A DNA stretch of 64,000 nucleotides from Myxococcales bacterium (GTDB taxonomy: Bacteria; Myxococcota_A; Polyangia; Polyangiales; JADJMO01). The notes beneath the pieces are model-generated. The model made no database searches. It saw nothing but the letters and a program-made list of their open reading frames with translations, and was not told the origin of the DNA. The position numbers were made by a program, and so were the translations under genes. The stretch is from positions 1 to 64,000 of the forward strand of contig JAEUKC010000023.1 of assembly GCA_016794445.1 (NCBI GenBank), given 5' to 3'. Every line of letters starts with the position of its first letter. The stretch's first letter is position 1. Shown here piece after piece: positions 8,510 through 43,716 of this stretch.

Positions 8510-9928
<1,419 letters not shown>

Positions 9929-9931
9929 CCG

Positions 9932-10918
9932 ATGCGCGCCCTCCCCTTCTCGCTCCTCCTGGCCTCGATGGTGGCGACGTCTCCCGCGATCGGCGACGAG
10001 GCGGCCACCGAGCAGGCGCGCGCGGAGTACGTGGCCGGCACCAACCACGTGAAGGCCGCCAAGTGGGGGGAGGCCATCGCCGCCTTCGAGCGCTCGCGGG
10101 CCCTGCGACGCCATGCCCTCACCACCTTCAACATCGCGGCGTGCGAGCGCGCGCTCGGTCGCTACACACGCGCGCGTCGAGCCTTCCGCGACGCCGTGGC
10201 AGAGGACAAGGCCTCGGGCGGGAAGGAGCTCGGCGAGACCTTCGTCGCCGACGCCAAGACGTATCTCGGAGAGATCGACGGTCTGCTCGCCAAGATCGAC
10301 CTCACCGTCTCGCCGGGCGACGCAGCCATCTCGTTCGACGGGCGACCGCTCCTGCTGGACGTGGAGGACAAGGGGCTCTACGTGACGGGCCTCGCGGCGC
10401 CCGGGCCGGGCAGCGCCCTCGGCGCGACGGTGCGGGTGCTGACCGATCCCGGGGCGCACGTTCTCGTTCTCGCCCGCAAGGGCTACTCGGACGTGCTGGT
10501 CAACCGGACCTTCCCGCCAGGCAGCAAGACCACGCTGGCGCTCGAGCTCGAGAAGCTGCCGGGGATCATCAAGGTCCGCGCCGATCGCGACGGCGCCGTG
10601 GTCACGCTGGACGGCCTCGACGTCGGCACGGCGCCGGTACAGGTCAGCCGGAGCGCGGGGGCGCACACCGTCATCGTCCGGAAGACCGGCTACGCGACGT
10701 ACAGTGCGCAGATCGACGTCCGTGCCGGGGAGGAGCTGGACCTCCGCGCGACGCTCGCTCCGGAGACCATCCCGATCACCAAGAAGTGGTGGTTCTGGAC
10801 GATCGCGGGCGGGGTGGTGGCGGGCGCCGCGGTGGGCACGTACTTCCTTGTGCGACCCGCGCCGACGCGTCCCCCCATCGACGGAGGAGGGCTCGGATGG
10901 GCCGCGACGGTGCAGTAG
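9932..10918 (+). CDS. PEGA-domain protein (signal peptide, C-terminal TM anchor)
   Basis: It has signal peptide MRALPFSLLLASMVATSPAIG and PEGA-like modules (HVLVLARKGYSDV; HTVIVRKTGYATYS). A TM helix WWFWTIAGGVVAGAAVGTYFLV follows. It starts 4 nt after the kinase stop. Confidence 0.75.
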   Translation: MRALPFSLLLASMVATSPAIGDEAATEQARAEYVAGTNHVKAAKWGEAIAAFERSRALRRHALTTFNIAACERALGRYTRARRAFRDAVAEDKASGGKELGETFVADAKTYLGEIDGLLAKIDLTVSPGDAAISFDGRPLLLDVEDKGLYVTGLAAPGPGSALGATVRVLTDPGAHVLVLARKGYSDVLVNRTFPPGSKTTLALELEKLPGIIKVRADRDGAVVTLDGLDVGTAPVQVSRSAGAHTVIVRKTGYATYSAQIDVRAGEELDLRATLAPETIPITKKWWFWTIAGGVVAGAAVGTYFLVRPAPTRPPIDGGGLGWAATVQ

Positions 10919-12687: not shown

Positions 12688-13943
12688 GGGTTCGGTCGTG
12701 GGTCGCGGTCGGCGCGCAGGTCGCGCTCCTCGGGTGCGGGCCTCGCACGGCGCCCCCCTCTGCCCAGCTCGTGATCCACCTCGATACCGACGCGACGTTG
12801 CCCGCCCCGCCCGGACAACCGGACCAGGCCTACCTGTTCGACCGCGTCCGCATCGACGTCCTCGAGGACGGGATCCCGACCGGGGTGGGGCGGGACTTCG
12901 CCGTCGACGAGGCGAGCTTCCGGGAGCGGAGGGCCAGCTTCGGCCTGGTGGCGCCGGCGGGTCGTGTCTTCGCCGTGCGCGTGCGCCTCTACCGGCTCGA
13001 CCGGGTGTACGAGGGGGAGCCTGCACCGACGTCCACGCTGGAGTCACGGGCGGCGCTGCCGGCGCTCGTCGAGGGCAAGGTGCAGCACCTCGGGCTGCTC
13101 CTGCATCTGGCCGATGTCGGGACGATCGTGGGGTATCCCGATCCCGTCGAGGCCGCGCCCTGGGTCGACACACCCTCTCTCGTGGGGAGCGCCGTCGTGC
13201 GCCGAAACTGTGGAGAGGCGCGGTACGAAGGCGAAGCCTGCGTGCCCGGGGGAGCGTTCCTGCTCGGTCTCCCGACGCCGCTCGCGGTGGCCGATCCGCG
13301 GGCCACGCGGCTGCCGACCGAGCGCGTGGTGCTGATGTCACCGTTCTTCGTGGACACCCACGAGGTGACGGGCGCGATGCTCGCGGCGAAGCTCCCCGAG
13401 CTCGGCGCGGTACGACCGCCTCTCGACGACGCGACCATCGGGTGCAACGTCTCACCGAGTCTGCCCGTGAACTGCGTGCACCCGGAGACGGCGCGCGCCT
13501 ACTGCCGCTCCCTGGGCAAGACGCTGCCGACCGAGGCCCAGTACGAGTACCTCGCCAGCGGGCGCGGGCGCGAGTGGCTGTACCCGTGGGGCTACGACAC
13601 CCCGCGGTGCGCCGACGTGGTGGCCGCGGACACCTTCGGGGTGACGCTGGTCCCGTGCGGGCCCGGGATCCGCCCCGCCGGCAGCGGACGCCTCGACCGA
13701 GTGGCGCTCGATCGCCCGGTGCTCGACCTCGCCGGCAACGTCGCCGAGTTCGCCGCCGACGACCTCGGGGTGCTCCCCGGTGGGCGCCTGCTGCGCGATC
13801 CCATCGGCACGGGCTCGTTCACGGTGGCGCGAGGGGGCTCCTTCCTCACCCCGCTGGCCGACGTGCGGGCCACGCTGCGCGCCTCCGACTTCGGCGAAGG
13901 GGCCGCGCAGGTCGGCTTTCGCTGCGTGCGCAAGGTTCCTTGA
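12672..13943 (+). CDS. FGE/SUMF1-fold domain protein with unknown N-terminal module (paralog 2)
   Basis: This is the 3' part of ORF 11832..13943, and ATG 12672 is in frame. The N-terminus MRARLRVRSWVAVGAQVALLGCG is lipobox-like. Motifs FVDTHEVT, LPTEAQYEYLASG, GNVAEFAAD, RGGSF and VGFRCV are present. It overlaps paralog 1 by 16 nt. Confidence 0.75.
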   Translation: MRARLRVRSWVAVGAQVALLGCGPRTAPPSAQLVIHLDTDATLPAPPGQPDQAYLFDRVRIDVLEDGIPTGVGRDFAVDEASFRERRASFGLVAPAGRVFAVRVRLYRLDRVYEGEPAPTSTLESRAALPALVEGKVQHLGLLLHLADVGTIVGYPDPVEAAPWVDTPSLVGSAVVRRNCGEARYEGEACVPGGAFLLGLPTPLAVADPRATRLPTERVVLMSPFFVDTHEVTGAMLAAKLPELGAVRPPLDDATIGCNVSPSLPVNCVHPETARAYCRSLGKTLPTEAQYEYLASGRGREWLYPWGYDTPRCADVVAADTFGVTLVPCGPGIRPAGSGRLDRVALDRPVLDLAGNVAEFAADDLGVLPGGRLLRDPIGTGSFTVARGGSFLTPLADVRATLRASDFGEGAAQVGFRCVRKVP

Positions 13944-25070: not shown

Positions 25071-26408
25071 GTGTCGGACGAGACGCGGACGATCCTCCGT
25101 TCGGTCGCGCCCCAGGGCGGCCCACGGCTCGCCGTGTTCGACCTCCTCGTCGTGGACGGGCCCGACCTCGGCCAGCGCGCGCGGCTCGACGGCCCGGGGC
25201 GCCTGCTCGTCGGGCAGAGCCCCGCGTGCGGGCTGCGGCTCCGCGACCCGCACGTCTCGCGTCGGCACCTCGCCTTCACGCTCGAACACGGGCGGCTCCG
25301 CATGACCGATCTGGGTTCCACCAACGGCACCCGGGTCAACGACGTCGAGGTCATCGAGGCCTTCCTGGCTGGCAACGAGCGCGTCCGCATCGGCGACACG
25401 AGCCTGATCGTCGAGCGCGCCCAGGCCGAGTCCACGCCGCTGACCGCGTCGCTGCGGTTCGGGCGCGTCGTCGGCGCGAGCCCCGAGATGCGCCGCCTCT
25501 ATCCCCTCTGCGAGCGCATCGCGCAGAGCCACGTCCCCGTCGTCATCGAGGGCGAGACCGGCACCGGCAAGGAGCTGCTCGCCGAGGCGCTCCACGACGC
25601 CGGCCCCCGGGCGAGCGGCCCGTTCGTGGTGTTCGACTGCACGACGGTCCCGCCCAACCTCGCCGAGTCGATGCTGTTCGGCCACGAGCGCGGCGCCTTC
25701 ACCGGCGCGATCAACGCGCGCAAGGGCGTGTTCGAGCTCGCCCACCAGGGCACGCTGTTCATCGACGAGATCGGCGACCTCGACCTCACCCTCCAGCCCA
25801 AGCTCCTGCGCGCCATCGAGCGCGCCGAGGTGCAACGCGTGGGCAGCGAGCGGTGGACCAAGGTCGACGTGCGCGTCGTCGCCGCGACCCGGCGCGATCT
25901 CGACCACGAGATCCAGGTCGGTCGGTTCCGCGACGACCTGTTCTTCCGGCTCGCGGTCGCGCGCATCGAGCTGCCGCCGCTCCGCAAGCGGGACGGCGAC
26001 ATCGGCGCCCTCGCGCGGCACTTCTACCGCCAGCTCGGCGGCGAGGGCGCGATCCCCGAGGAGCTGCTCGCGCGCTTCGAGGCCCACGAGTGGCCGGGCA
26101 ACGTGCGCGAGCTCTCCAACGCCGTCGCGCGCTACCTCGCTGTCGGCGAGACCACGCTCGCGGGCCTCGCGCCCTCGAGCCGTCGCCCCGCGGAGAGCGC
26201 ACCGGCCAGCGGCCAGGACCCGATCGAGGCCGTGCTCGCGCGCGACCTGCCCCTGCCCCGGGCCCGCGAGGAGGTCGTCGCCGAGCTCGAGCGTCGCTAC
26301 ATCGAGCGCGTGCTCGAGCGCTACGGCGGCAACGTCGGGCGCGCCGCGGCCGCCTCGGGCATCGCGCGCCGCTACTTCCAGATGATCCGAGCCCGACACC
26401 AGAAGTGA
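25071..26408 (+). CDS. FHA domain-containing sigma54-dependent transcriptional activator (bEBP)
   Basis: This is the 3' part of ORF 24081..26408, starting at GTG 25071. The N-terminal FHA is LLVGQSPACGLRLRDPHVSRRH...STNGTRVN. The AAA+ domain has GETGTGKE, GAFTGA and ELPPLR. The C-terminal Fis-type HTH is GNVGRAAAASGIARRYFQ. Confidence 0.9.
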   Translation: MSDETRTILRSVAPQGGPRLAVFDLLVVDGPDLGQRARLDGPGRLLVGQSPACGLRLRDPHVSRRHLAFTLEHGRLRMTDLGSTNGTRVNDVEVIEAFLAGNERVRIGDTSLIVERAQAESTPLTASLRFGRVVGASPEMRRLYPLCERIAQSHVPVVIEGETGTGKELLAEALHDAGPRASGPFVVFDCTTVPPNLAESMLFGHERGAFTGAINARKGVFELAHQGTLFIDEIGDLDLTLQPKLLRAIERAEVQRVGSERWTKVDVRVVAATRRDLDHEIQVGRFRDDLFFRLAVARIELPPLRKRDGDIGALARHFYRQLGGEGAIPEELLARFEAHEWPGNVRELSNAVARYLAVGETTLAGLAPSSRRPAESAPASGQDPIEAVLARDLPLPRAREEVVAELERRYIERVLERYGGNVGRAAAASGIARRYFQMIRARHQK

Positions 26409-27820
26409 TGGAGAAGCAGGTCGGTCGCTACCTCCTGTCCGCGGAGATCGCCTCCGGCGGCATGGGCACCGTGCACCTCGGCCACCTGCGCGGCGAGGCC
26501 GGGTTCGCGCGCGCCGTCGCCATCAAGCGCCTGCACCCGCACTACGCGCGGGAGGACGACTTCCGGCGGATGTTCATCGACGAGGCGCGGCTCGCGAGCC
26601 GGGTGCGCCACCCCAACGTCGTGCCGACGCTCGACGTCGTCGTCGAGGGCGACGAGCTGTTCGTGGTGATGGAGTACGTCCACGGGGCGCCGCTCTCCTA
26701 CCTCCTCCAGGCGACGCGCCAGGCAGGCCGGCCGATCCCCGTGCGCATCGCCTCGGCGATCGCGAGCGGCCTCCTCCAGGGTCTGCACGCGGCGCACGAG
26801 GCCGTCGACGAGAAGGGCCAGCCGCTCGGGCTCGTGCACCGCGACGTCTCGCCGCAGAACGTCATCGTCGGCGCCGATGGCGCGACGCGGGTGCTCGACT
26901 TCGGCGTGGCCAAGGCGGCCGGTCGGCTCCAGTCGACGACGGCGCCGAGCACCATGAAGGGCAAGCTGGCCTACGCCGCGCCCGAGCAGATCCGCGGCGA
27001 GGACGTCACCCGGCTCACTGATCTCTACGCGGCCGGGGTCGTGACCTGGGAGCTGTTCACGGGCAAGCGCCTCTTCACGGGCGACCACGACGGCGCGCTG
27101 GTCGAGCAGATCCTGGTGGGCTGGGTCGATCCGCCGAGCCGGTGGGACCCAGCCATCCCCGAGGCGCTCGACGAGGCGATCCTGCGTGCACTGTCCACCG
27201 AGCCGAGCCGGAGGTTCCGCACGACGCGCGAGATGGCGATGGCCATCGAGCGCTGCGTGCCCGCCGCGCCCGCGATGGAGGTCGCCGAGTGGGTGGAGCG
27301 CCTCGCCTGGGACCTGCTCGAGACCCGGAGGACCGCCCTCGCGATCGTGGAAGGGCACCCGTCGAGTGGCGAAGCGCCTCCCCCCATCTCGTCTCGACGC
27401 GAAGACCCGTCGAGCATCTCGGTGTCCCAGCCCGTGCCGAAGCGCGGACGGCGGCGGGTGGTCGGGCTCGTGCTCCTCGCCTTCGTCACGGCGAGCCTCG
27501 CGTTCGTGCTCGCGCGCCCCGCGGCGAAGAAGCCCGTGAGCGCCGTGGCCGCGGCGTCGCCTCCGACCTCGACGGCGTCACCCGAGGCTTCCACCGCGCC
27601 TTCCGTGAGCGCTGCCCCGACGGCCACGGAGCCATCGACCGTGGTGCTGCCGGTCGTCAGCGTGCCCTCGCTGATCGCGCCGACGCACAAGATCGCCCCG
27701 TCGAAACCCCCGCCCAGCGTGGCGCCGAAGCCGGTCGATCCGCCGTCCGACTGCACCCCACCCTACACCTACGACGAGCTGGGCCGACGGATCTACAAGC
27801 GGCACTGCCTCGGCAAGTAG
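26408..27820 (+). CDS. Ser/Thr protein kinase with TM helix and Cys-containing C-terminal motif
   Basis: ATG 26408 shares one nucleotide with the bEBP TGA (TGATG). Motifs are GGMGTVH, AIKRL, HRDVSPQN, DFGVAK and APEQ. The TM helix is VVGLVLLAFVTASLAFVLA. The C-terminus is CTPPYTYDELGRRIYKRHCL. Confidence 0.9.
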   Translation: MEKQVGRYLLSAEIASGGMGTVHLGHLRGEAGFARAVAIKRLHPHYAREDDFRRMFIDEARLASRVRHPNVVPTLDVVVEGDELFVVMEYVHGAPLSYLLQATRQAGRPIPVRIASAIASGLLQGLHAAHEAVDEKGQPLGLVHRDVSPQNVIVGADGATRVLDFGVAKAAGRLQSTTAPSTMKGKLAYAAPEQIRGEDVTRLTDLYAAGVVTWELFTGKRLFTGDHDGALVEQILVGWVDPPSRWDPAIPEALDEAILRALSTEPSRRFRTTREMAMAIERCVPAAPAMEVAEWVERLAWDLLETRRTALAIVEGHPSSGEAPPPISSRREDPSSISVSQPVPKRGRRRVVGLVLLAFVTASLAFVLARPAAKKPVSAVAAASPPTSTASPEASTAPSVSAAPTATEPSTVVLPVVSVPSLIAPTHKIAPSKPPPSVAPKPVDPPSDCTPPYTYDELGRRIYKRHCLGK

Positions 27821-27857: not shown

Positions 27858-29000
27858 GTGGCTCGTGGCCTCGCCGTGCGCGCGTTCCTGCTCGTCCTCG
27901 GCCACGCCTTCGTGCGGGGCCCAGGGCCGGCGCTGCTCGTGTGGGGCCTGCTCTGCGTCGTCGCGTTCGGACCGAACGGCCTCGATCCGCGGGACGTGGC
28001 GCGCATGCTGCCGGCCTGGTCGTGGGCCCGCCTCGCCTTCGTCGCGGCCTCGACCCTCGTCCTCCGCGCCGGGGTGCGGGCCCTCTTGTTGCCCGCCGGG
28101 GCGACGTACCTGCGCGCCTCGACGATCCCCCGCCACGGGCAGCTCTGGCTCGTCTCGTCCGCCGTATTCCTCGCCACCGCGCCGCTGCCGGTCGTCCTCG
28201 CCATCGGACGTGCGCCCGGCGCCGCCGTGGTCGTGTGGCTCGCCACCGCGATCGCCTGCGTGGCGGGTCCGCCGTGGCAAGTCGCCGTGGCGATCGGTGC
28301 GTCCTTGCTCCCAGCCGCGTCGGTCCCTCTCGCCGTCGTCCTCTACAGCCTGACGATCCGCACCGCGTACCGCGACGCGCCGGTGATGCTCCGGAGGACA
28401 CGACGGCGGGGTCTCTCGCGCCGACCCCTGCCCTGGCCCCTCGCGCTCGTGGTGGCCGCGACGACGACGATCGTGCGCGCGAGCCCGCGGGTCCTGTTCG
28501 CGCTCGCGGCGCCGCTCCTCGGGCTGTCGCTGGTACGCGCCGCCGACGGCGACGCGCGCGCGGAGCGGGTCGTGTCGCTCGCGGCGCTGGTGGCCGCGCT
28601 GGGCGCCACGCCGCTCGTTTCGTCGATCGGGCGACTCCTGCGCTCGGTGCAACCCCTCACCCGTGGGGGCGGCCGCTCCCAGCGCCTCGCGATCCTGACG
28701 GCGACGCTCGTGCTGTCCACGCCCTCGGTCGCGTTCGCCGCGGGCGGCCACGCGCTCGCCGGCACCCACCACGAGCCTCTCTTCGTCGGTGTCGCGCTGG
28801 TCGTGGCCCTGCTCCTCCTGGAGGGCTGGCTGGTCGCGCGGCGCAAGGACGCGCCGCTCGCGCTCGTCCTCTCGGTCCTGCCGCTCGTCGTCGGGTGCAC
28901 GATCCTCGCGCGCGCAGGCCTCGCGTGGCTCTCCTTCGCGCTCGCCGCGCTCGGTCTCGCGCTACCCCTGCCGGAGGTCCGCCGTGCTGAACATCGCTGA
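27858..29000 (+). CDS. polytopic membrane protein (putative permease partner of the downstream ABC ATPase)
   Basis: 380 aa with about 10 hydrophobic helices and high GC3. It starts at GTG, 38 nt after the kinase stop, and overlaps the ATPase gene by 17 nt. I recognise no family. Confidence 0.7.
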   Translation: MARGLAVRAFLLVLGHAFVRGPGPALLVWGLLCVVAFGPNGLDPRDVARMLPAWSWARLAFVAASTLVLRAGVRALLLPAGATYLRASTIPRHGQLWLVSSAVFLATAPLPVVLAIGRAPGAAVVVWLATAIACVAGPPWQVAVAIGASLLPAASVPLAVVLYSLTIRTAYRDAPVMLRRTRRRGLSRRPLPWPLALVVAATTTIVRASPRVLFALAAPLLGLSLVRAADGDARAERVVSLAALVAALGATPLVSSIGRLLRSVQPLTRGGGRSQRLAILTATLVLSTPSVAFAAGGHALAGTHHEPLFVGVALVVALLLLEGWLVARRKDAPLALVLSVLPLVVGCTILARAGLAWLSFALAALGLALPLPEVRRAEHR

Positions 29001-29610
29001 CGTCCACCGCCGCTTCGGCGCCGACGTCGTCCTCGCCGGAGTGTGCCTCGACGTGGGCGCGGGGGAGGTCGCCGTGGTGCGCGGCGCGAACGGCGCAGGC
29101 AAGAGCACGCTCTTCGAGATCGTGGCCGGGGTGCTCGACGCGGACGCAGGCTCCGTGCGCGTGGACGGTCGACCCAACACCGATCCGCGCGCGCGGCGGT
29201 CGATCGGCTACGCGCCGGCCGCGGCCACGCTCCCCGAGTCGCTGTTCGTCCACGAGTGGGTCGATCTCGCGTGCGCCCTCCGCGGCGTCGACGGCGCGGA
29301 GGACGTCGACGCGACGATGACGAGGTTCGGGCTGGAGGCCACCGTCGACGCCCGCCTCTCGTCGCTGTCCCTCGGACAGCGACGCCGCTTGCTGCTCGCG
29401 CTGGCCAGCCTCGGACACCCCTCGCTCCTCTTGCTCGACGAGCCGACGGTCGGACTCGACGCCGCGGGTGTCGCCGACGTCATCGCCTGGCTCGATCGGC
29501 ACCGTCGCGCGGGTGGGGCCATTCTCCTCGCCAGCCACGACGACGACTTCGCGTCCGCCCTCGGGGCGATCCGTTGCACCCTCGCGGCTGGACGCATCGT
29601 CGAGTCGTGA
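28984..29610 (+). CDS. ABC transporter ATP-binding protein (single short NBD, 208 aa)
   Basis: GTG 28984 is in frame with ORF 28789..29610. It has Walker A GANGAGKST, signature LSLGQRRR, Walker B LLLLDEP and H-loop ASHD. Confidence 0.9.
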   Translation: MLNIADVHRRFGADVVLAGVCLDVGAGEVAVVRGANGAGKSTLFEIVAGVLDADAGSVRVDGRPNTDPRARRSIGYAPAAATLPESLFVHEWVDLACALRGVDGAEDVDATMTRFGLEATVDARLSSLSLGQRRRLLLALASLGHPSLLLLDEPTVGLDAAGVADVIAWLDRHRRAGGAILLASHDDDFASALGAIRCTLAAGRIVES

Positions 29611-29711
29611 AGCGATGACTCAGAGTGAGCCACGGCGAACGTCTGGAATCGCGCGCTGAATTTCACTTTCATGCCTGCGGTCGAGTGGTTGGGGGTACGA
29701 GCCTGCATCCC

Positions 29712-30854
29712 GTGTTTCCTCGTCTCCTCGCGCTGGCTGCCGCCGCGCTCGTCTCTTGCTCGCTGACCACGGCCGACGCCGAGTGGACGTCGCGTGTCCG
29801 GCTCGAGACCGCCGGGTACTCCGACAGCGACCACGTCGCGGTCCTCACGCCCTCGATCGCGGGCGCCGTCGAGAACCCGATCAAGGGCTTCCGTCTCGGC
29901 GGCAGCTACCTGGTCGACGCCGTCAGCGCGGCCTCGGTCGACATCGTCTCGACCGCGAGCAAGCGCTGGAGCGAGGTCCGCCACGCCGGCGCGCTCGACT
30001 TGAAGTACAAGCCGCACGGCTTCGGCTTCGCTGGCAACGGCTACGTGTCGATCGAGCCCGACCACCGCTCGCTCGGCGTCGGCGGCAGCGTCGTCCTCGA
30101 CTTCGGCGAAGCGCACGCGCACACCGCCACCCTCGGCTACTCGTTCGCAGAGGACACCGACGGCCGCTCGGGCACCCCGTTCAACGTGTTCTCGCGCGTC
30201 GTCGACAAGCACACGCTCTCGCCCGGCGTCACCTTCACCGTCGACGCCTCGACCGTGCTCTCGTTCATGGCCGACGTGATGATCGAGCGTGGCAACACGT
30301 CGAAGCCGTATCGGTACATCCCGTTCTTCGCCTCGTCGAACGACGCTCCGGTCGGGGCCTCGGTCGACCGGGTCAACGCCGTCCGACTCCCCGAGCGGGC
30401 GCTCGAGCGCCTTCCCGAGAGCCGCAACCGCCTCGCGCTCTCGGCGCGCATCCTCCACCGCTGGGAGTCGACCACCCTCCGCCTCCTGCAGCGCCTCTAC
30501 GTCGACAGCTGGGGCCTCGTGTCGACCACCACCGACCTGCGGTTGCCGGTCGACCTCGATCGTCGTTGGCGGGTGTTCCCCCACCTGCGCCTCAACATCC
30601 AGAGAGGGGTCAGCTTCTGGCAGCGCGCGTACACGCTCGGCGCGGACGGCAGCTTCCCGAAGTACTACGCGGGCGACCGCGAGCTCGGACCGCTCCGCAC
30701 CGTGGTCCTCGGTGGAGGAGCGCAGGTCGACCTCGCCGGCTTCACGGTCTCCGCGCAGGTGGACGGCATGTACACGCAGTTCCTCGACGCCCTCTTCATC
30801 CAGGGGCGGTCGGCCATCCTCTGCACGCTCGGCGTCGAGAGGGTGCTCGAATGA
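29712..30854 (+). CDS. DUF3570-like outer-membrane barrel protein
   Basis: Part of ORF 29625..30854. GTG 29712 gives the signal VFPRLLALAAAALVSC/SLTTADA, and the preceding codons have poor GC3. The overall beta-rich pattern and the YLVDAVSAAS motif match my memory of DUF3570. This needs HMM confirmation. Confidence 0.65.
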   Translation: MFPRLLALAAAALVSCSLTTADAEWTSRVRLETAGYSDSDHVAVLTPSIAGAVENPIKGFRLGGSYLVDAVSAASVDIVSTASKRWSEVRHAGALDLKYKPHGFGFAGNGYVSIEPDHRSLGVGGSVVLDFGEAHAHTATLGYSFAEDTDGRSGTPFNVFSRVVDKHTLSPGVTFTVDASTVLSFMADVMIERGNTSKPYRYIPFFASSNDAPVGASVDRVNAVRLPERALERLPESRNRLALSARILHRWESTTLRLLQRLYVDSWGLVSTTTDLRLPVDLDRRWRVFPHLRLNIQRGVSFWQRAYTLGADGSFPKYYAGDRELGPLRTVVLGGGAQVDLAGFTVSAQVDGMYTQFLDALFIQGRSAILCTLGVERVLE

Positions 30855-31486
30855 CCCCCGAGCTCGCCTTGGCCCTGGAGCAGGATCTCGCCCTGGTCGG
30901 CGCTGACAGCCCCTGTTCGAAGGCCGGTCAGCTCGACCAGGGGTGGTCGTGCTTCCGGGCCCGCGGCGACCAGTATCACGGCACACCGACGGGCTCTCGC
31001 CTCCCGAGTCAGGTGGCCCTCGGCACGACCCGGCTCGTCGCCACGACGGACTTCTGGCTCGGTGGCTTCGCCCTCGGCGCGCGGCTCGGGTGGGCGTTCC
31101 GCGGCGTCGGCCCGGTCTCCGACGGGGCGGAGCACGTGATCCCCGTCGACGCCGCGTTGCGCGCCCGCGTCGCGCTCTCCCGGAGCTCGACGCTGCGGAT
31201 CGAGCTGCTGGGCGTCTTCGGCCTGCGTCAGCTCGACGCCCGCGCGACGGTGAAGGTCAACGAGGACCGCAGCGTGCCTCCCTCGGTGTACCAGCTCGAC
31301 AACCCGGACAAGCAGAGCCTCGATGCGTACAAGCGCCTGGGCCTCGGCTACGTCGCCGTAGGGCTCGGCGTCACCTTCCGGCTCGGCGAGGCCACGGCGC
31401 TCCGCTTCGAGCTACCACTCTCGGTCTCGTTCCCGACCAGCGGAGTGGCCGTGAGCCCCTCCGCCGCCTTCGTGGTGAAGCTGTGA
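30851..31486 (+). CDS. hypothetical protein, translationally coupled to the DUF3570-like gene
   Basis: ATG 30851 overlaps the upstream TGA (ATGA) and is in frame with ORF 29756..31486. The C-terminal half is beta-rich (LGLGYVAVGLGVTFRLGEATALRFELPLSVSF). There is no obvious signal peptide. Confidence 0.55.
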   Translation: MTPELALALEQDLALVGADSPCSKAGQLDQGWSCFRARGDQYHGTPTGSRLPSQVALGTTRLVATTDFWLGGFALGARLGWAFRGVGPVSDGAEHVIPVDAALRARVALSRSSTLRIELLGVFGLRQLDARATVKVNEDRSVPPSVYQLDNPDKQSLDAYKRLGLGYVAVGLGVTFRLGEATALRFELPLSVSFPTSGVAVSPSAAFVVKL

Positions 31487-31491
31487 CTCGC

Positions 31492-31716
31492 TCAGTTGCA
31501 GCCGCAGCCGCCGCCGACGCCGCCGGCGCCGCCGGTCGCGCCCTCGTGCACGCCGTACACGTGCGCCTCGGCCACGCCGGTCGGCTCGTCGAGCGCCATG
31601 GTGGGGTGCGCGAGCTTGCCGCGCTGGTAGGCCTTGACCGACGTGCAGCCGGCGGACAGCGCTCCGAGCACGGCGCACGCGAGGAGGGCGATCGATGAGA
31701 GGGAGCGCTGCTTCAT
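31492..31716 (-). CDS. DUF4266-like small lipoprotein (74 aa)
   Basis: It has the signal MKQRSLSSIALLACAVLGALSAGC/TS and a Gly-rich tail ending GGVGGGCGCN, the hallmark I remember for DUF4266. ATG 31716 overlaps the stop of the upstream gene (ATGA). Confidence 0.7.
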   Translation of the reverse strand: MKQRSLSSIALLACAVLGALSAGCTSVKAYQRGKLAHPTMALDEPTGVAEAHVYGVHEGATGGAGGVGGGCGCN

Positions 31717-32375
31717 GGCGTGATCACGACCTTGGTGGAGACGTAGTTGGCGGCATCGGGAGCGGTGAACGTGCCGGCCGCGCCTACCTTGAACGGGACG
31801 GCGAGCTGGGGACCCGCGGCGCTGACGCTCTTGGCGTTGCTCTCGGCGAACTCGACGTGCAACACGTAGTCGCCGTTCGGCACGCGGCCACCCGAGAGGT
31901 TCGCGCAGTTCCAGTCGACGCTGACCGGACCGTGCGACTTGAGCGTGGCACCGGTGACGGCATCGACCGTGCTGGCCTTGGACACCGAGCGCCACACGGC
32001 GAGGTTGGAGCTGCGGCTCTTGCCCCACTCGCCCACCGTCTTGACGAAGGCTCCCCTCGCGTCGGTCACCCACACGGCGAGCACGTGGCTCGGCGCGTAA
32101 CGCCCGAAATAGGTCTTGGTCGTGAAGTCGGCGTGTAGGCACTTGCCGGGAGCCACCGTCCCGCCGTCGCTCGGCTTCACGCCGGTGTCGATCGGCGTGC
32201 CGGAGTCGTCGAGCACCGGATCGCCCGCGTCGTCGCTCGCGATGGTGGGGTCACCTGCGGATGGATTCCAGAACTCTGCGTCGTTGTCGTTCGCAGGACC
32301 GCATGCCACGGTGGAGAAGAGACTGATGGAGCAGATGGCAATGGCGAGCAGGCGCATCGGGATCGTGTGCACCAT
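31713..32375 (-). CDS. DUF2271-like periplasmic lipoprotein
   Basis: Part of ORF 31713..32498. The start is ATG 32375 (MVHTIP...) or ATG 32357 (MRLLAIAICSISLFSTVAC/G). The core VWVTDARGAFVKTV...W...VDAVTGATLKSHG...DW...VPNGDYVLHVE resembles DUF2271. Confidence 0.7.
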   Translation of the reverse strand: MVHTIPMRLLAIAICSISLFSTVACGPANDNDAEFWNPSAGDPTIASDDAGDPVLDDSGTPIDTGVKPSDGGTVAPGKCLHADFTTKTYFGRYAPSHVLAVWVTDARGAFVKTVGEWGKSRSSNLAVWRSVSKASTVDAVTGATLKSHGPVSVDWNCANLSGGRVPNGDYVLHVEFAESNAKSVSAAGPQLAVPFKVGAAGTFTAPDAANYVSTKVVITP

Positions 32376-32868
32376 AGCACTTTCAATGGTCCTTGTTGCC
32401 TGTAGTGATCCCGTCGCGTCGGATCGCCGCGAGGCCCTCGGACCAGAGGTCAAGGGGACCCGGTCCGGGCCCACCCACCGACCCGGGCAGCCCTGCACGT
32501 ATTGCCACGATGGCTCGGAGGAGCAGGAGTTCGCGGTGGCTGGAACGGTCTACGCGACCCGCGAGGGCAAGGTGCCCGTCCAGGGGGCGCGCGTCGCCAT
32601 GAAAGACGCGACGGGAGCCACGTTCGTGGCAGAGACCAACTGCGCTGGAAATTTCTTCGTCCGACCCCAGACCTGGCGCCCAGTATTTCCATTGACCACG
32701 ACGGTCACCTACAAAGAACAGACACAGATCATGGAGAGCAAGATCCACCGAGAGGCGAGCTGTGGAGCCTGCCACGGCAAGGTCCCTTCGCCCACCTCGG
32801 CCGGTCCGATCTTCCTCTTCGACGACGTCACGCCGGTCCCGTCCGATCTGCCGGGGGGCTGCAAGTGA
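32341..32868 (+). CDS. lipoprotein with two CXXCH haem-binding motifs
   Basis: Part of ORF 32116..32868. ATG 32341 gives MASRRIGIVCTIALSMVLVAC/SD (alternatives ATG 32326 and 32335). CTYCH is at 32494-32508 and CGACH at 32761-32775. A beta-sandwich-like insert (AVAGTVYATREGKVPVQGARVAMKDATGATF) lies between them. Confidence 0.7.
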   Translation: MASRRIGIVCTIALSMVLVACSDPVASDRREALGPEVKGTRSGPTHRPGQPCTYCHDGSEEQEFAVAGTVYATREGKVPVQGARVAMKDATGATFVAETNCAGNFFVRPQTWRPVFPLTTTVTYKEQTQIMESKIHREASCGACHGKVPSPTSAGPIFLFDDVTPVPSDLPGGCK

Positions 32869-33356
32869 ACCCGGTCGCGCGACTCCTCCTCAGCGCAGGG
32901 ATGAGCGCCCTCGGCTGCAGCAGCGTGGATCAGGGCAGCGTCACCATCGCCACGCCGGACCGTGCCCAGTTCCCGCTGGTCGCGGACGCGATCGCCCCTT
33001 CGTGCGCCACGCTGGACTGCCACGGCCAGATCGGTCGCAACTTCCGGATGTACTGGCAGCGCGGCCTGCGCCTGGATCCAGCGGCACGACCGGGCGAGGG
33101 TGAGACGACCGTCGACGAATACGACATGACGTTTCGCTCCCTCGTCGCGCTCGAGCCGCTCAAGATGGACGCGGTGGTGAAGGGCACCCAGAAGGCGGAC
33201 TCCCTCACCCTCGTGCGCAAGGCCCGGGGCACCGAGGCCCACAAGGGTGGGGCCATGAATCCCGTCGGGAGCAACGCCGATCGTTGCCTCGTGAGCTGGC
33301 TGTCGGGCGCGATCGACACGGCGGCGTGCAAGGACGCCGTCACCTCACCGCCCTGA
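32865..33356 (+). CDS. lipoprotein with planctomycete-cytochrome-like module (CX4CH)
   Basis: GTG 32865 overlaps the upstream TGA (GTGA). The signal is VNPVARLLLSAGMSALGC/SS. CATLDCH lies at 33003-33023 and is followed by ...GLRLD. The later segment ...CLVSWLSGA resembles PSCyt-type domains. Confidence 0.6.
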   Translation: MNPVARLLLSAGMSALGCSSVDQGSVTIATPDRAQFPLVADAIAPSCATLDCHGQIGRNFRMYWQRGLRLDPAARPGEGETTVDEYDMTFRSLVALEPLKMDAVVKGTQKADSLTLVRKARGTEAHKGGAMNPVGSNADRCLVSWLSGAIDTAACKDAVTSPP

Positions 33357-33359
33357 CCG

Positions 33360-34463
33360 CTACGGCGCGGGGGACGGCGCGACACGCGGCGCGCGGTTCG
33401 GCAGCGCGAAGCGGAAGATCTTCGCGATCACGCTCCCCATCTGCCGGAAGAAGCCGCCGGTGTTGTACCGGTAGCCGTACTTGTCGGCGAGCGCGCGCAC
33501 CTCGGGGGCCAGCTCCGGGTACCGCGAGGCGGGCAGATCCGGGAACAGGTGGTGCTCGATCTGGTGGCTCAGGTGGCCGCTCATCACGTGGAACCAGCGG
33601 CCTCCCTCCAGGTTGGCCGAGCCCTCGAGCTGTCGCACGTACCACTGCCCGCGCGTCTCCTCGCGCGCGTCCTCCTCGCGGACCATCCGGGTCCCCTCGG
33701 GGAAGTGACCGCAGAAGATGATGGCGAACGTCCAGAGGTTGCGGATGCCGTTGGCGAGGAGGTTCCCGAGCGCGACGCGCGGCGCGTTCCACAGGGAAAG
33801 CGCCGGGAAGAACACGTAGTCCTTGAACAGCTGCTGCGCGGCCTTGCGGAGGAACGGCCGCGACCGCGCGCGGAGCTCGGCGAACGACTGCTTGCCGGCG
33901 ACGGTCTCGTCGATGCGCAGATCGTGGAGGGCGACGCCCCACTCGAAGCCGAGCGCGAGACCGAGCGCCGCGATCGGCTGCAGGAGGTGAGCCGGGTGCC
34001 AGGGCTGCTCCTCGGTCACGCGGAGGAGCCCGTAGCCGACGTCGCGGTCCTTGCCGACGATGTTGGTGAACGTGTGGTGCTCGTAGTTGTGGGAGTGCCG
34101 CCAGTGCTCTGCGGCGCACGAGGTGTCCCAGTCGTAGGCCTTGCCGTCGAGCTTCGGGTCGCGCGTCCAGTCGTACTGGCCGTGCATCACGTTGTGACCG
34201 ATCTCCATGTTCTCGAGGATCTTGGCCACGCCGAGCGAGGCGCTCCCGACCACGAAGGTCACCGGATCGACCCCGAAGTGGAGCAGTCCGCGCCCGATGG
34301 CCTCGAACGAGCGCATCGCGCGGATCACGCCGCGGATGTGGGCGACGTCGCGCGCGCCGAGGCCTTCGAGCGTCCGGGCGCGCAGGGCATCGAGCTCGCG
34401 ACCGAGGGCCTCGGCGCGATCTTCGGCGGTGGTGGGCGGAGTGTCGAGGGTGAGGGTCATCAT
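33360..34463 (-). CDS. membrane fatty-acyl desaturase (DesA3-like)
   Basis: This is the 3' part of ORF 33360..35318, starting MMTLTLD at 34463. It has three His boxes: HNVMH, HSHNYEHH, HQIEHH. Confidence 0.9.
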   Translation of the reverse strand: MMTLTLDTPPTTAEDRAEALGRELDALRARTLEGLGARDVAHIRGVIRAMRSFEAIGRGLLHFGVDPVTFVVGSASLGVAKILENMEIGHNVMHGQYDWTRDPKLDGKAYDWDTSCAAEHWRHSHNYEHHTFTNIVGKDRDVGYGLLRVTEEQPWHPAHLLQPIAALGLALGFEWGVALHDLRIDETVAGKQSFAELRARSRPFLRKAAQQLFKDYVFFPALSLWNAPRVALGNLLANGIRNLWTFAIIFCGHFPEGTRMVREEDAREETRGQWYVRQLEGSANLEGGRWFHVMSGHLSHQIEHHLFPDLPASRYPELAPEVRALADKYGYRYNTGGFFRQMGSVIAKIFRFALPNRAPRVAPSPAP

Positions 34464-34471: not shown

Positions 34472-35548
34472 CTAGAGGGCGAGGTCGAGGTCGGAGCGGG
34501 CGAGGGACGTGCAGAGGCGGATCTCCTCGTCGGGCGCGTCGGAGATCGCGCCAGTCACGAGGTCCTGGACGACCCCGCTCCGCTTGCGGCAACGGCAGGT
34601 GTGGCAGATGCCGATGCGGCAGCCGTGATCGGGTCGCTCGCCCGCCCGCTCGAGCCCCTCGAGCAGGGACTCGGCGCCCGTGACGGCGACGGTGCGGCGG
34701 GCGCGAGACAGCGTGATGCGGGCGGTCTTGCCGCTGTCTACGCGAGCGTAGGTCGGAGCGACGAAGCGCTCCTCGTGCAGGCGGTCGATGGCCCCGGCCT
34801 CGGCCCAGCGGCGCCGCAGCAGGTCCATGAGGCCGGTGGGCCCGCACAGGAAGGCCTCGCGATCGGCGAAGTCGGGGACGAGCTCGGTGAGGTCGCGCGG
34901 CGGGCCGTCGTCGAGCTGGAGCACCACCTGCAGCGACGGGTACACGGCGGCAAGCCCCTGGAGCTCCTTGGCGAAGGGGACGTCCGCGAGGGTGCGCGCG
35001 TAGTGGAGGTAGACGACGTCGGCGACGGCGCCGCGGGCGACGAGGTCGCGCAGGATGGACATGTTCGGCGTCGCCCCGCTGCCGCCGCTGACGAGGAGCA
35101 GCCGGGCCGGCACGCGCGCGGGCAGCACGTACTCGCCCTGGGCCTCGCCGAGGCGGAGGATCGCGCCGACGCCGGCGTTCTCGTGCAAGAAGCCCGAGAC
35201 GCGACCGCGCGGCACGCGCTTGACCGTGATGGAGAGGCGCGCGCCGCCGGGCGCCGAGGAGATCGAGTAGCAGCGCCGGGCGCGCACGCCGTCGATCTCC
35301 ACGTCGACCGGCACCCACTGGCCGGCGCGGTGGCCGCGGAAGCGCCCGTTGGGGGCGAGGACGAGGGTGCGGATGTCGGGGGTCTCGTCGACCACGGCCA
35401 CCACCTCGGCGAGGGTCTCGGAGAGCGAGAAGGTCGGGGCGACCTCGTGGAGCCAGAACTCGAGGGGCTCGGCCACCACCCTCTGTGCGAGGTCACGAGC
35501 GAACGCGACGAGGCCTCCGCCCGCGAGGGGCGGCGAGACGACGGACAT
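34472..35548 (-). CDS. ferredoxin-NADP-type oxidoreductase with C-terminal 2Fe-2S domain (desaturase electron donor)
   Basis: Part of ORF 34472..35572. ATG 35548 has GGAGG 5 nt upstream. It has the FAD motif RCYSIS, the NAD motif VSGGSGATP, and the 2Fe-2S Cys cluster CRIGICHTCRC...LC. Confidence 0.9.
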   Translation of the reverse strand: MSVVSPPLAGGGLVAFARDLAQRVVAEPLEFWLHEVAPTFSLSETLAEVVAVVDETPDIRTLVLAPNGRFRGHRAGQWVPVDVEIDGVRARRCYSISSAPGGARLSITVKRVPRGRVSGFLHENAGVGAILRLGEAQGEYVLPARVPARLLLVSGGSGATPNMSILRDLVARGAVADVVYLHYARTLADVPFAKELQGLAAVYPSLQVVLQLDDGPPRDLTELVPDFADREAFLCGPTGLMDLLRRRWAEAGAIDRLHEERFVAPTYARVDSGKTARITLSRARRTVAVTGAESLLEGLERAGERPDHGCRIGICHTCRCRKRSGVVQDLVTGAISDAPDEEIRLCTSLARSDLDLAL

Positions 35549-35714: not shown

Positions 35715-36335
35715 ATGTCTCCCATGCTCGGTCGCAGCCGCCTCTCTGCCTCTGCCCGTCGCGCGCAGCTCATCGACGTCGGCCGCGCCGTGTTCGCCCG
35801 GAAGGGATACGAGGCCGCGTCGGTGGAGGAGATCGCCGACCGCGCCAAGGTCAGCAAGCCGGTGATCTACGAGCACTTCGGCGGCAAGGAGGGGCTCTAC
35901 GCCGTCGTGGTCGACCGCGAGATGGACTACGTGGTGCGGCGGATCTCGGAGTCGATCGCGACCGGCACGCCGCGCGAACGCCTCGAGCGCGCCGCGCACG
36001 CATTCCTCTCGTACGTGAAGGACCAGCCGGACGGGTTCGCCGTGCTCAGCCACGACGCCCCCTCCTCGCGTCGCGCCGGGATGACCTCGCTGCTCAACGA
36101 GATCGCCGAGCGGGTGGGCGAGCTGTTCGCGAGCTCGTTCAAGTCGGCGGGGTACGACCCGCGCGCCGCGCCCATCTACGCGCACGCCCTGATCGGGATG
36201 GTCACCTTCGTAGGGCAGTGGTGGACGAACGAGCGCAAGCCGTCGGTCGAGGACGTGGCCGGCCACATCTCGGCGCTCGCGTGGATGGGCCTGCGCCACC
36301 TGCCGAAGAGGCCGGCGCGGGTCGGCGGGCGGTAG
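35715..36335 (+). CDS. TetR family transcriptional regulator (divergent from the desaturase operon)
   Basis: Part of ORF 35349..36335. ATG is at 35715 (alternative 35724). The TetR_N HTH is RRAQLIDVGRAVFARKGYEAASVEEIADRAKVSKPVIYEHFGGKEGLY. Confidence 0.9.
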   Translation: MSPMLGRSRLSASARRAQLIDVGRAVFARKGYEAASVEEIADRAKVSKPVIYEHFGGKEGLYAVVVDREMDYVVRRISESIATGTPRERLERAAHAFLSYVKDQPDGFAVLSHDAPSSRRAGMTSLLNEIAERVGELFASSFKSAGYDPRAAPIYAHALIGMVTFVGQWWTNERKPSVEDVAGHISALAWMGLRHLPKRPARVGGR

Positions 36336-42226: not shown

Positions 42227-42493
42227 TCACGGGATGACGTGGCCCGCGTCGGTCGACTCCACGTGGCCCGCGTCGTTCGAGAGCGCGTGCCCGGCGTCCG
42301 TCGAGAGCGCGTGCCCGGCGTCGTTCGAGAGCGCGTGCCCGGCGTCCGTCGAGAGCGCGTGGCCCGCGTCGGTCGAGAGCGCGTGCCCCGCGTCGTTCGC
42401 GGCGGAGTGGGGGTCGCCGCTCGCGGCCGAGACGCGGAGAGCGACGAAGACGGCAGCGGCAGCGAAGACACCAACGGTTGCGCGGTCGATCAT
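42227..42493 (-). CDS. small secreted protein made of His-containing octapeptide repeats
   Basis: AAGGAGG lies 7 nt upstream of ATG 42493. The signal peptide is MIDRATVGVFAAAAVFVALRVSA/AS. The mature part is DPHSAAN followed by DAGHALST x2, DAGHALSN, DAGHALST, DAGHALSN, DAGHVEST and DAGHVIP. Confidence 0.75.
   Translation of the reverse strand: MIDRATVGVFAAAAVFVALRVSAASGDPHSAANDAGHALSTDAGHALSTDAGHALSNDAGHALSTDAGHALSNDAGHVESTDAGHVIP
42230..42394. repeat. 24-bp tandem repeat array (about 7 units)
   Basis: The plus-strand units are GAGAGCGCGTGCCCGGCGTC(C/G)(G/T)TC and close variants. They encode the octapeptide repeats on the minus strand. Confidence 0.95.
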
Positions 42494-42556: not shown

Positions 42557-43156
42557 TCACTCCAGCGTCGTGCGGGCGACGAGGCCCTCGAAGCGCTCGC
42601 GGTCGGCGGCGGCCTTCTTGCGCTTGCGGCGCAGCCAGACGAACAGCACCGCGTGGACCGTCGCGGCGACGCCGAGACCGACCGCGGCCCGCAGCGGCGC
42701 TCGCTGGTACTGCTGCGCGTGGCTCAACACGAGCCACGCGATGCCCACGACCACCACTCCGAAGAGCGCGAGGTGGGCGCTCCACGCGAAGCGAGCGAGC
42801 GTGTCCTCTGCGCGAAGCCGCCGCCGCGTGAGCTCGACGTACCGATCGACCGACGCCCCTTCGACCGCGAGCAGCCCCCAGCGCTCGCCGTAGAAGCGCG
42901 CGAGCCAGACGCCGTTGAAGATCGAGATGGCTACGGCGATCGCGGCCACGGCCGGCGTGCCGCGCGTTCGGACCACGAGCGCCGTGAGCACCACGGTGGA
43001 GAAGGCCGCGCCGAGGGTCTCGTAGACCAGGCCGCGGCGCAGCTTGTTGCCGTCGCGCGTGCAGCGCTCGGCGAGCGCGTCGAGCGCGGCCGGGTCGCCG
43101 AAGGTCTGCCATTCGGCGCGCCAGCCGGCGAGCTCGGGATCGGGATCGTGGGTCAT
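42557..43156 (-). CDS. 4-TM membrane protein, putative anti-sigma factor / ECF partner
   Basis: Its ATG overlaps the sigma-gene stop (ATGA at 43153-43156). The cytoplasmic N-terminus is (ELAGWRAEWQ...). It has four hydrophobic helices. There is no zinc HxxxCxxC anti-sigma motif. Confidence 0.55.
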   Translation of the reverse strand: MTHDPDPELAGWRAEWQTFGDPAALDALAERCTRDGNKLRRGLVYETLGAAFSTVVLTALVVRTRGTPAVAAIAVAISIFNGVWLARFYGERWGLLAVEGASVDRYVELTRRRLRAEDTLARFAWSAHLALFGVVVVGIAWLVLSHAQQYQRAPLRAAVGLGVAATVHAVLFVWLRRKRKKAAADRERFEGLVARTTLE

Positions 43157-43716
43157 GGGGTTCCTTCGTGCTCCTCGAGGAGCACGCGCAGGGCCGCGCG
43201 CGCGCGGTGGGCGCGCACGGCGACGTGGTTGACGGTGAGGCCGAGGACGTCGGCGATCTCCTGGTGATCGAGGCCCTCGAGCAGCAGGGTCACGACCTGC
43301 CGGTGAGAGAGCGGCAGCGCGCGCACCGCGGCGAGCAGGCGCGCCTCGCGGTGGCGGCGCTCGTAGGCGAGCGCGGGGTTCTTGCCCGAGGTCGCGACCA
43401 CCCGGTCCTCGTGGTCGTCCACGTCCTCGGTCGGTCGACCCCGCTTGGCGAGGAAGGCGAGCGCGCGGTTGTGAGCGACGCGGAAGACGAACGTGCGCTC
43501 GGAGCAGTCGCCGCGGAACCGCGGGAGCGCGGTGAAGAGCGCGAGGGCCACGTCCTGGGCGAGGTCCTGGCGGTCGGCCGGGCTGCGTGCGTAGCTCGCG
43601 AAGAGCCGGGACAGCGGCGCCGCGTGTGCGTCGAGGAGGCGGGCGAGGCGCGCCTCCAGTGACTCGCCGCTCTTCTCGTCGGGCGTGGTGCCGGGGTGGG
43701 TCATCTCGAGGGTCAC
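43153..43716 (-). CDS. ECF-type RNA polymerase sigma factor
   Basis: Region 2 is DRQDLAQDVALALFTALPRFRGDCSERTFVFRVAHNRALAFL. Region 4 is LPLSHRQVVTLLLEGLDHQEIADVLGLTVNHVAVRAHRARAAL. Confidence 0.9.
   Translation of the reverse strand: MTLEMTHPGTTPDEKSGESLEARLARLLDAHAAPLSRLFASYARSPADRQDLAQDVALALFTALPRFRGDCSERTFVFRVAHNRALAFLAKRGRPTEDVDDHEDRVVATSGKNPALAYERRHREARLLAAVRALPLSHRQVVTLLLEGLDHQEIADVLGLTVNHVAVRAHRARAALRVLLEEHEGTP

Follow-up and report, generated by a model that had tools for sequence, protein, structure and literature searches.

Within a 64-kb stretch of Myxococcales DNA (contig JAEUKC010000023.1, positions 1 to 64,000; hereafter the window), eight genes between positions 27,858 and 33,356 bring together DUF3570, DUF4266 and DUF2271 proteins, two lipoproteins with haem c motifs, and an ATP-binding cassette (ABC) pair. 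We found that these genes include a rearranged version of a module that is distributed across the Polyangia, and the composition of this module suggests an electron route across the cell envelope that has not been studied before. The genes, designated P1 to P8 in the order of their coordinates, and the candidate flavinylation sites are the following:

27858-29000, plus strand: P1, a polytopic membrane protein of 380 amino acids (aa) with about 9-11 hydrophobic segments and no Pfam or NCBIfam family
28984-29610, plus strand: P2, a short ABC ATPase of 208 aa (ABC_tran, E 1e-25), with the Walker A motif GANGAGKS at nucleotides (nt) 29083-29106 and the signature LSLG
29712-30854, plus strand: P3, a predicted DUF3570 barrel of 380 aa with an N-terminal signal peptide (Pfam PF12094)
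29916-29960, plus strand: tandem flavinylation-type sites within P3, D69-A-V-S-A-A-S75 and D77-I-V-S-T-A-S83
30851-31486, plus strand: P4, 211 aa, with an ATGA overlap with P3
31492-31716, minus strand: P5, a small DUF4266 lipoprotein (Pfam PF14086)
31713-32375, minus strand: P6, a DUF2271 lipoprotein (Pfam PF10029), with an ATGA overlap with P5
32326/32341-32868, plus strand: P7, a lipoprotein with two CXXCH motifs, whose start may be 32326, 32335 or 32341
32865-33356, plus strand: P8, a lipoprotein with a CX4CH motif and a GTGA overlap with P7

Reading frames were chosen by third-position GC, in a window of about 72% G+C, and the public gene calls on identical short metagenome contigs agree with the resulting map; both lines of evidence bear out the gene layout given by a first-pass annotation of this DNA, which had been made from the letters alone. 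All eight genes show ratios of nonsynonymous to synonymous substitution (dN/dS) of 0.10-0.33 against three relatives, which indicates purifying selection.

The extent of the module was defined by comparison with related loci. A scan with the DUF3570 protein P3, limited to one genome per species, returned 268 relatives, and the best 78 of these loci, each of which holds a DUF3570 gene, were searched with all eight window proteins. The 78 loci all belong to Polyangiales, Polyangiaceae or Labilithrix and include the cultured species Labilithrix luteola. More broadly, P3 has hundreds of homologues, all of them in Polyangiales-type metagenome bins, and the DUF3570 relatives form 755 clusters at 50% identity. 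Among the species-representative loci, L011 (JADJMO010000005.1) is the nearest, with a P3 identity of 91%.

Homologues of P3 were present in all 78 loci, followed by P7 (74), P8 (72), P5 (64), P4 and P6 (13 each), P2 (6) and P1 (2). Of the 72 loci that can be evaluated once contig ends are allowed for, 67 carry P7 and P8 co-oriented with DUF3570 and no more than 1.5 kb downstream of it, with P8 directly after P7 in 64 of these 67. A co-oriented DUF4266 gene precedes DUF3570 by at most 700 bp in 53 of 77 loci. The conserved unit is a four-gene core in the order DUF4266, DUF3570, P7 and P8. That haem-motif lipoproteins are partners of DUF3570 and DUF4266, as had been proposed for the window, is confirmed by their position directly downstream of DUF3570. 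P6 and P4 represent a co-occurring accessory pair, since the loci that carry the one are mostly those that carry the other.

Conservation of this core is deep. The set persists in L094, where the DUF3570 protein retains 30% identity, and in L091, where it retains 27% in a different genomic setting; searches that started from P8 homologues, picked without regard to DUF3570, led to the set as well, in Minicystis rosea and in L096. On the latter, a 275-kb metagenome contig, the genes stand in the order DUF2271, DUF4266, DUF3570, P7 and P8; Minicystis rosea carries all of these genes too. The split layout of the window, common only to its closest relatives (L007, L011 and L012), is a lineage-specific rearrangement of a normally collinear operon. 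Thus, of the neighbourhood conservation across Myxococcota on which the first-pass annotation had staked its claim, the gene set is kept across the Polyangia and the arrangement is not. Their retention in dozens of species and their low dN/dS values show that these genes co-occur by more than chance. In Polyangiaceae the module is often present in two or three copies per genome; among the best 80 matches, MFD00731.bin.2.198, binchicken_co50_422 and ERR1035438_bin.42 have three each. The window contains a single copy.

P3 was assigned to DUF3570 (PF12094) with 55.4 bits against a curated Pfam cut-off of 25, over residues 88-348. Its AlphaFold2 model, with a predicted local distance difference test (pLDDT) score of 80.6, forms a barrel of approximately 18-20 antiparallel strands, for which Foldseek reported 398 PDB matches at E <= 0.001; the best of those listed are the OmpG, OccD, FadL, TodX and BcsC barrels (E 4e-9, probability 1.0). 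Taken together with the signal peptide, the fold predicts that P3 is an outer-membrane beta-barrel. Many DUF3570 homologues (P0247, P0257, P0264 and others) are 560-740 aa long and carry an N-terminal extension of 230-380 aa without a Pfam match.

Both DUF2271 and DUF3570 have been shown to be flavinylated by ApbE, and the ApbE-associated form of DUF3570 is by definition required to carry two [S/T]GA[S/T] sites (Meheust et al., eLife 2021; PMC8238504). The full ApbE motif is D-x-x-[S/T]-G-A-[S/T], and in one tested substrate a change of its Gly to Ala cut flavinylation to about 50% (review PMC12052999). The two sites of P3 read SAAS and STAS, so that Asp, Ala and Ser/Thr are retained and the Gly of the published definition is lost. 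Residues 69-83 are nearly invariant among 120 homologues, and the consensus of the wider family, drawn from about 120 representatives, is D-x-[VIL]-[ST]-A-A-S-x-D-[IV]-[VI]-[SA]-x-A-[ST]. Two representatives (SGAS) and the distant homologue in L091 (TGAS) have the canonical Gly at site 1, and these Gly-bearing members identify the P3 sites as positional homologues of the flavinylation sites. In the model, the sites fall at the end of strand 3 and in a low-confidence loop (76-83), at the end of the barrel opposite the N-terminus.

The other two families are also supported by profile scores. P5 matches DUF4266 (PF14086) with 59.9 bits against a cut-off of 27; it has a signal peptide with a lipobox-like SAGC and a C-terminal Cys-X-Cys within the sequence G-C-G-C-N (nt 31495-31509), and 64 of 64 homologues from related loci likewise terminate in GCGCN. 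P6 matches DUF2271 (PF10029) with 41.7 bits against 27.3 and carries a canonical ApbE-type motif, D138-A-V-T-G-A-T144 (nt 31944-31964). Its homologues in the 13 loci follow the pattern D-A-[VI]-[TS]-[G/A/S]-A-T, in which Asp, Ala and Thr are invariant. All three family assignments made by eye in the first-pass annotation are therefore upheld by the Pfam scan.

P4 had been recorded as a gene of unknown type that is ATGA-coupled to P3. The coupling stands, but the gene is not an isolated unknown: P4 is a truncated relative of a family that we call c3, whose members are 450-540 aa long, and it corresponds only to their C-terminal 210 aa or so (34-43% identity by blastp) and has no signal peptide. 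In about 29 loci a c3-family gene follows P8. P4 has no Pfam family, and the c3 family profile found no Pfam or PDB relative. A decaying pseudogene was considered for P4 and rejected on its dN/dS of 0.20-0.32.

P7 carries the lipobox LVAC (Cys26) and two haem c motifs, CTYCH (nt 32494-32508) and CGACH (nt 32761-32775); exactly two CXXCH motifs are found in 73 of its 74 homologues. The residues H51, R52, G54, Q55, C57, C60, H61, M136, C146, C149 and H150 are invariant, and among them His51 and Met136 are candidate distal ligands. Profile matches in the PDB are mostly to c-type cytochromes (best E 6e-4). Given the CXXCH motifs, the export signal and the conserved distal ligands, P7 is a putative di-haem c-type cytochrome, with haem attachment inferred from these features.

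Public gene calls shorten P7 to 110 or 139 aa (L001, L002, L007 and L008), and the 110-aa call, which starts at 32536, lacks the first CXXCH as well as the lipoprotein signal peptide. Two observations favour the full-length form: its N-terminus is 91% conserved, and homologues elsewhere are 170-180 aa long. The 5' coding ends of P6, on the minus strand, and P7, on the plus strand, overlap (32326-32375), by at least 17 nt with any plausible starts, and the overlap is kept in L011 and L012; consequently, the promoter of each gene must sit within the other.

P8 has the lipobox ALGC (Cys18) and the motif CATLDCH (nt 33003-33023), which is CX4CH. The pattern C[GA][TS]LDCH occurs in 121 of 121 homologues and CXXCH in none, so the earlier description of both proteins as CXXCH lipoproteins holds for P7 and not for P8. 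Invariant positions are C47, C52, H53, H126, C141, W145 and C155, with His126 as candidate distal ligand, and the model is all-alpha (pLDDT 87.7). The family numbers 302 homologues, none of which has a Pfam domain or an informative name. CX4CH is an established, rare haem c attachment motif, known from class III cytochromes c3 and represented in NCBIfam by TIGR01904 ("CxxxxCH/CxxCH domain"). P8 shares the C-x4-C-H spacing with these proteins and differs from them by its single site and by an all-alpha fold that matches no solved cytochrome. We regard it as a putative mono-haem protein of an undescribed family.

Kinship of P8 with planctomycete-type or class-I cytochromes c was tried and rejected. 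By eye its layout resembles theirs, but it has no profile similarity to the cytochrome c domain encoded elsewhere in the window, and comparison with a CXXCH domain found upstream in related loci gave a profile E of only 0.05. That domain belongs to a third haem-motif family, which is not represented in the window: its gene lies directly upstream of DUF4266 in 15 related loci (L016:9254-9583, L077:9312-9641 and 13 others). The C-terminal domain of about 100 aa follows the pattern "APTWT..F..YL..GT.GNCxxCH...Y.WL...SCLSWYGGNMPP...AW.AAGA.NN", in which Cys-x-x-Cys-His and Met-Pro are invariant, in a layout like that of class-I cytochromes c. No Pfam family matches this domain significantly, and in the PDB it is matched over its whole length only by cytochromes c6, at a non-significant E of about 1. 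An alternative interpretation of this conserved upstream element as a minus-strand gene was discarded because the open reading frame lengths are inconsistent.

In previously described clusters, DUF3570 is accompanied by ApbE, DUF4266 and a thioredoxin-like protein, to which DsbD is sometimes added, and DUF2271 is found in the company of PepSY-like proteins, ApbE and DUF4198 (PMC8238504); the first-pass annotation had named the two flavinylated substrates and the association with DUF4266 correctly. It had also stated that ApbE, thioredoxin-like and PepSY-type partners are locally absent, and this was verified. The window contains no ApbE, thioredoxin-like, PepSY or DsbD domain, as judged by Pfam on most genes and from the translations of the remaining, mostly obvious ones; nor does it contain a DUF4198 gene by Pfam, so that the usual context of DUF2271 is missing. 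An Escherichia coli ApbE query had no match in the window, nor in the 1.36 Mb of related loci, either by tblastn (E <= 1) or by phmmer (E <= 10) against 8,313 six-frame open reading frames. This negative is meaningful because the positive control works: searched with this query, plasmids yield 647 records that bear the annotation FAD:protein FMN transferase, at 22-35% identity, from Proteobacteria, Firmicutes, Fusobacteria, Actinobacteria and Deinococcus. For nine context loci (including L007, L009, L091 and L094-L096), the precomputed Pfam annotation likewise includes no ApbE, and L090, a more distant DUF2271 context, has Redoxin and nitroreductase genes and no ApbE. No DsbD was found in the cluster, the window or the 78 related loci. 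A TlpA-like thioredoxin is retained in 7 of the 78, which means that its replacement is not absolute and links the subfamily to the canonical system. A canonical DUF3570 comparator was sought on plasmids, with no match.

Compared with the canonical system of ApbE, DUF3570, a thioredoxin-like protein (PF13899) and DUF4266, the Polyangia module is alike in joining DUF3570 to DUF4266, in the C-terminal Cys-X-Cys of DUF4266, in its extracytoplasmic components, and in two tandem D-x-x-[ST]-x-A-[ST] sites at the homologous position. It is unlike that system in having no ApbE or DsbD, in usually lacking the thioredoxin-like protein, in the constant presence of the CXXCH and CX4CH lipoproteins, and in the loss of Gly from the sites. 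With the PepSY-like, ApbE, DUF2271 and DUF4198 clusters it shares a secreted DUF2271 protein with a D-x-x-T-G-A-T motif; it differs by the absence of PepSY-like, ApbE and DUF4198 genes and by the joining of DUF2271 to DUF4266 and DUF3570, an association not reported in PMC8238504. That study describes flavin/cytochrome interchange in related systems and is silent on an outer-membrane location of DUF3570 and on clusters with cytochromes. Polyangia names do not occur in the accessible part of its supplement, and a 2024 follow-up study does not treat DUF3570. In the literature searched, DUF3570 and DUF4266 are mentioned elsewhere only in passing, nothing relevant was found on ApbE in myxobacteria, and no description of this gene combination was found, in agreement with the original claim of novelty.

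Based on this evidence, we interpret the module as a probable outer-membrane electron relay whose haem lipoproteins stand in for the thioredoxin/DsbD branch and whose flavins, if there are any, would be attached by an unlinked ApbE, and we assign this interpretation a probability of about 0.4. Under such a scheme, P7 and P8 would carry covalent haem c in place of a thioredoxin-like protein fed by DsbD, and would exchange electrons with flavin mononucleotide (FMN) held by ester bonds on Ser75 and Ser83, in a loop at the barrel's far end, and on Thr144 of DUF2271. The flavins would be attached in trans by an ApbE that is encoded elsewhere in the genome and accepts other residues in place of the glycine. 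In DUF4266, the C-terminal Cys-X-Cys would act as a thiol or metal redox partner. The electrons would probably serve in the end to reduce a metal (iron), or some other oxidant, at the outer membrane or outside it. The DUF3570 and DUF2271 sites are probably still in use because Asp, Ala and Ser/Thr are near-invariant at three separate sites; caution about the flavin is nevertheless warranted because both the glycine and a linked ApbE have been lost. Accordingly, of the "flavin + haem redox module" named in the first-pass annotation, the conserved set of flavin-family and haem-motif genes without a linked ApbE stands, while flavin on DUF3570, with its SAAS and STAS sites, is insecure.

Several results weigh against this relay. 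No ApbE was found within 10 kb in any of the 78 loci, and no membrane electron donor was identified. The canonical Gly is gone from both DUF3570 sites, and in the family the corresponding position of site 2 bears bulky residues (Thr, Glu, Met, Tyr, His). That the modelled site loop may face the cell surface follows from the customary placing of the N-terminus in the periplasm. P7 falls below every cytochrome family cut-off, with 22.2 against 24.8 bits for Cytochrome_C7 in Pfam and 21.4 against 40 for nanowire_3heme in NCBIfam, and P8 has no Foldseek match in the PDB, no PDB sequence match and no Pfam or NCBIfam cytochrome family. Haem attachment, flavinylation, the direction of electron flow and the physiological role are inferred.

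The loss of Gly from both sites in nearly all of the 120 homologues and of the roughly 120 representatives raises the prospect that DUF3570 of the Polyangia gave up flavinylation altogether. The S-x-A-S loop would then have a structural or binding function, and electrons, if any, would pass through the haems of P7 and P8 and the tail of DUF4266. The published definition of ApbE-associated DUF3570, which demands [S/T]GA[S/T], and the absence of ApbE from the 1.36 Mb of related loci, by a query that recovers ApbE from six phyla, are both in line with this haem-only relay. Even so, Asp, Ala and the acceptor Ser/Thr, on which ApbE depends most, are near-invariant at both sites, and this is hard to explain for a mere loop, and a Gly-to-Ala change keeps about half of the flavinylation. 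Moreover, DUF2271 preserves D-x-x-T-G-A-T here and the acceptor Thr throughout, which implies an active ApbE somewhere in these genomes. We therefore consider a relay without flavin unlikely.

The genomic setting of two distant copies points toward metals. In L091/L092 (JGI 3300006056 Ga0075163_10004495; ENA ERZ27257534; approximately positions 1-11640), a distant copy of the module is found amid metal-uptake genes. The module part comprises DUF4266, a P8 homologue (CAFAGCH), a 223-aa protein with one CXXCH, DUF3570 (with TGAS and TAAT sites) and DUF2271; the 223-aa protein ends in GCATGG, a hydrophobic helix and an RRR tail, which resembles a MYXO-CTERM sorting signal. Its neighbours are a ferritin, Peripla_BP_2, a TonB-dependent receptor, DUF6162, ZnuA, an ABC ATPase and an ABC-3 permease. 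Near the copy in L096 lies a VIT1 gene. Such neighbours fit the proposed role of flavinylated systems in iron reduction, and they fit direct metal binding too.

The module could, on the second of these terms, serve metal trafficking, with the barrel as a channel and the CXXCH, CX4CH and CXC lipoproteins as chaperones of copper, zinc or iron that hold neither haem nor flavin. Besides the company of the L091 and L096 copies, the sub-threshold cytochrome scores of P7 and P8, the lack of a solved cytochrome with the fold of P8, and the near-equal similarity of P2 to zinc/manganese importer ATPases and to CcmA are all compatible with this alternative. The strict C-x-x-C-H and C-x4-C-H spacing with a conserved distal His or Met, however, is a signature of haem c and not of a metal site, and DUF3570 and DUF2271 are experimentally flavinylated families. 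Most of the 78 loci also lack metal-transport neighbours, and the best Fur box matches upstream of the module are no better than those in shuffled sequence. Metal reduction is in any case compatible with the electron relay, and we judge that pure metal trafficking is improbable.

The membrane/ABC pair P1 and P2 and two regulatory genes lie upstream of P3 on the same strand. The regulatory genes, which the first-pass annotation correctly placed immediately upstream of P1, are:

25071-26408, plus strand: an FHA-sigma54 activator, directly upstream of the P1 region
26405-27820, plus strand: a Ser/Thr kinase, directly upstream of P1

These four genes are neighbours of the module, and their membership in it is not supported. 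P1 matches no permease family in Pfam or NCBIfam, and its homologues are confined to L007, L011 and L012, where the whole region is syntenic; only two of these loci, the two closest relatives, are among the 78, and the proposal that the ABC pair forms part of the module consequently lacks support. Close homologues of P2 (80-88% identity) occur only in L011 and L012, and the four further loci show generic ABC similarity of 30-35%. The best NCBIfam match of P2 is CcmA, with 121.2 bits, below the cut-off of 131.6, and zinc/manganese importer ATPases score nearly as well. Only 3 of about 83 loci have an FHA-sigma54 activator like that of the window in the vicinity of the module. FHA-sigma54 activators adjoin the module in L026 and L094, and in L096 one lies 7 kb away. 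Control by sigma54 as a conserved feature was rejected, on the scarcity of such activators and because the -24/-12 pattern matches 36 times where 46 matches are expected, and never within the relevant intergenic regions. A shared upstream motif was also discarded, the sole enriched k-mer being coding sequence of an upstream gene.

The fullest form of the earlier proposal, in which all eight genes and the activator/kinase pair are regulated together as a single unit and the ABC pair supplies its membrane part, for example as an exporter of haem or another cofactor, is very improbable: the short gaps and overlaps on one strand from the activator through P4, the placing of CcmA, a haem exporter ATPase, as the closest if sub-threshold match of P2, the purifying selection on P1 and P2, and the activators next to or near the copies in L026, L094 and L096 do speak for it, but P1 and close P2 homologues occur only where everything is syntenic, activators are scarce near the module, sigma54 promoters show no excess, and Polyangia genomes are so rich in such regulators that proximity is expected by chance.

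Other parts of the window contain gene groups outside the module. Convergent with P8 are a fatty-acid desaturase (33360-34328), a ferredoxin-reductase-like reductase with FAD, NAD and 2Fe-2S domains (34472-35479) and a TetR regulator (35790-36335); this run looks like a self-contained desaturase system, and its synteny is limited to the closest relatives. A small open reading frame at 42227-42493 on the minus strand is made up for the most part of 6.8 tandem copies of a 24-bp unit (42238-42399), which encodes the octapeptide D-A-G-H-A-L-S-T/N, and adjoins an extracytoplasmic function (ECF) sigma factor (43153-43716) and a putative membrane anti-sigma protein (42557-43156). On the plus strand, 51246-56318 is occupied by genes with planctomycete-type domains, namely PSCyt2/PSD2 (51246-53099), an unannotated gene (53096-53794), DUF1501 (53854-55185) and a gene at 55182-56318 whose product has a bona fide C-terminal cytochrome c domain (CSACH; Cytochrome_CBB3, E 1e-7). 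Finally, 8621-13943, also on the plus strand, encodes a Ser/Thr kinase, a TPR/PEGA protein and two successive FGE-sulfatase (formylglycine-generating enzyme-like) proteins.

Outer-membrane barrels that work with cytochromes are familiar from the porin-cytochrome conduits, which include MtrCAB of Shewanella, PioAB/MtoAB and the Pcc systems of Geobacter; MtrB has 26 strands and its partners have ten haem motifs. The Polyangia module resembles these conduits in that an outer-membrane barrel is encoded beside proteins with haem c motifs, a comparison of working mode and not of membership. Compared with MtrB-type conduits, P3 is smaller (about 18-20 strands) and unrelated in sequence, its partners have one or two haem motifs, and the barrel itself bears candidate flavin sites. 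No homology to porin-cytochrome conduits was detected, and the Foldseek matches listed for P3 are generic barrels such as OmpG and FadL.

A bolder extension of the electron relay, which we offer as speculative and probably not correct in full, would make the module a hybrid flavin/haem conduit of the outer membrane, often present in two or three copies. A barrel of about 18 strands, with two covalent FMNs on a surface-side loop, would be wired to small haem c lipoproteins from two families not described before, and a relaxed ApbE would accept Gly, Ala, Ser or bulkier residues at the site. Aerobic soil predators and polymer degraders could then use it for extracellular redox reactions such as iron reduction. 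If true, the module would parallel the porin-cytochrome complexes of metal-reducing bacteria in a compact form that contains flavin.

DUF3570 and DUF2271 are among the few families shown to carry flavin attached by ApbE outside the cytoplasm. Our analysis defines a large and deeply conserved DUF3570 subfamily in which the usual partners are exchanged for two unannotated lipoprotein families and the flavin-site rule is relaxed, and it places DUF3570, by prediction, in the outer membrane, a point absent from PMC8238504. The subfamily offers a natural test case for the flavin/cytochrome interchange proposed in the literature, and the cultured species Labilithrix luteola and Minicystis rosea carry the system. 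If both haem and flavin were confirmed, the module would represent a new type of outer-membrane electron conduit.

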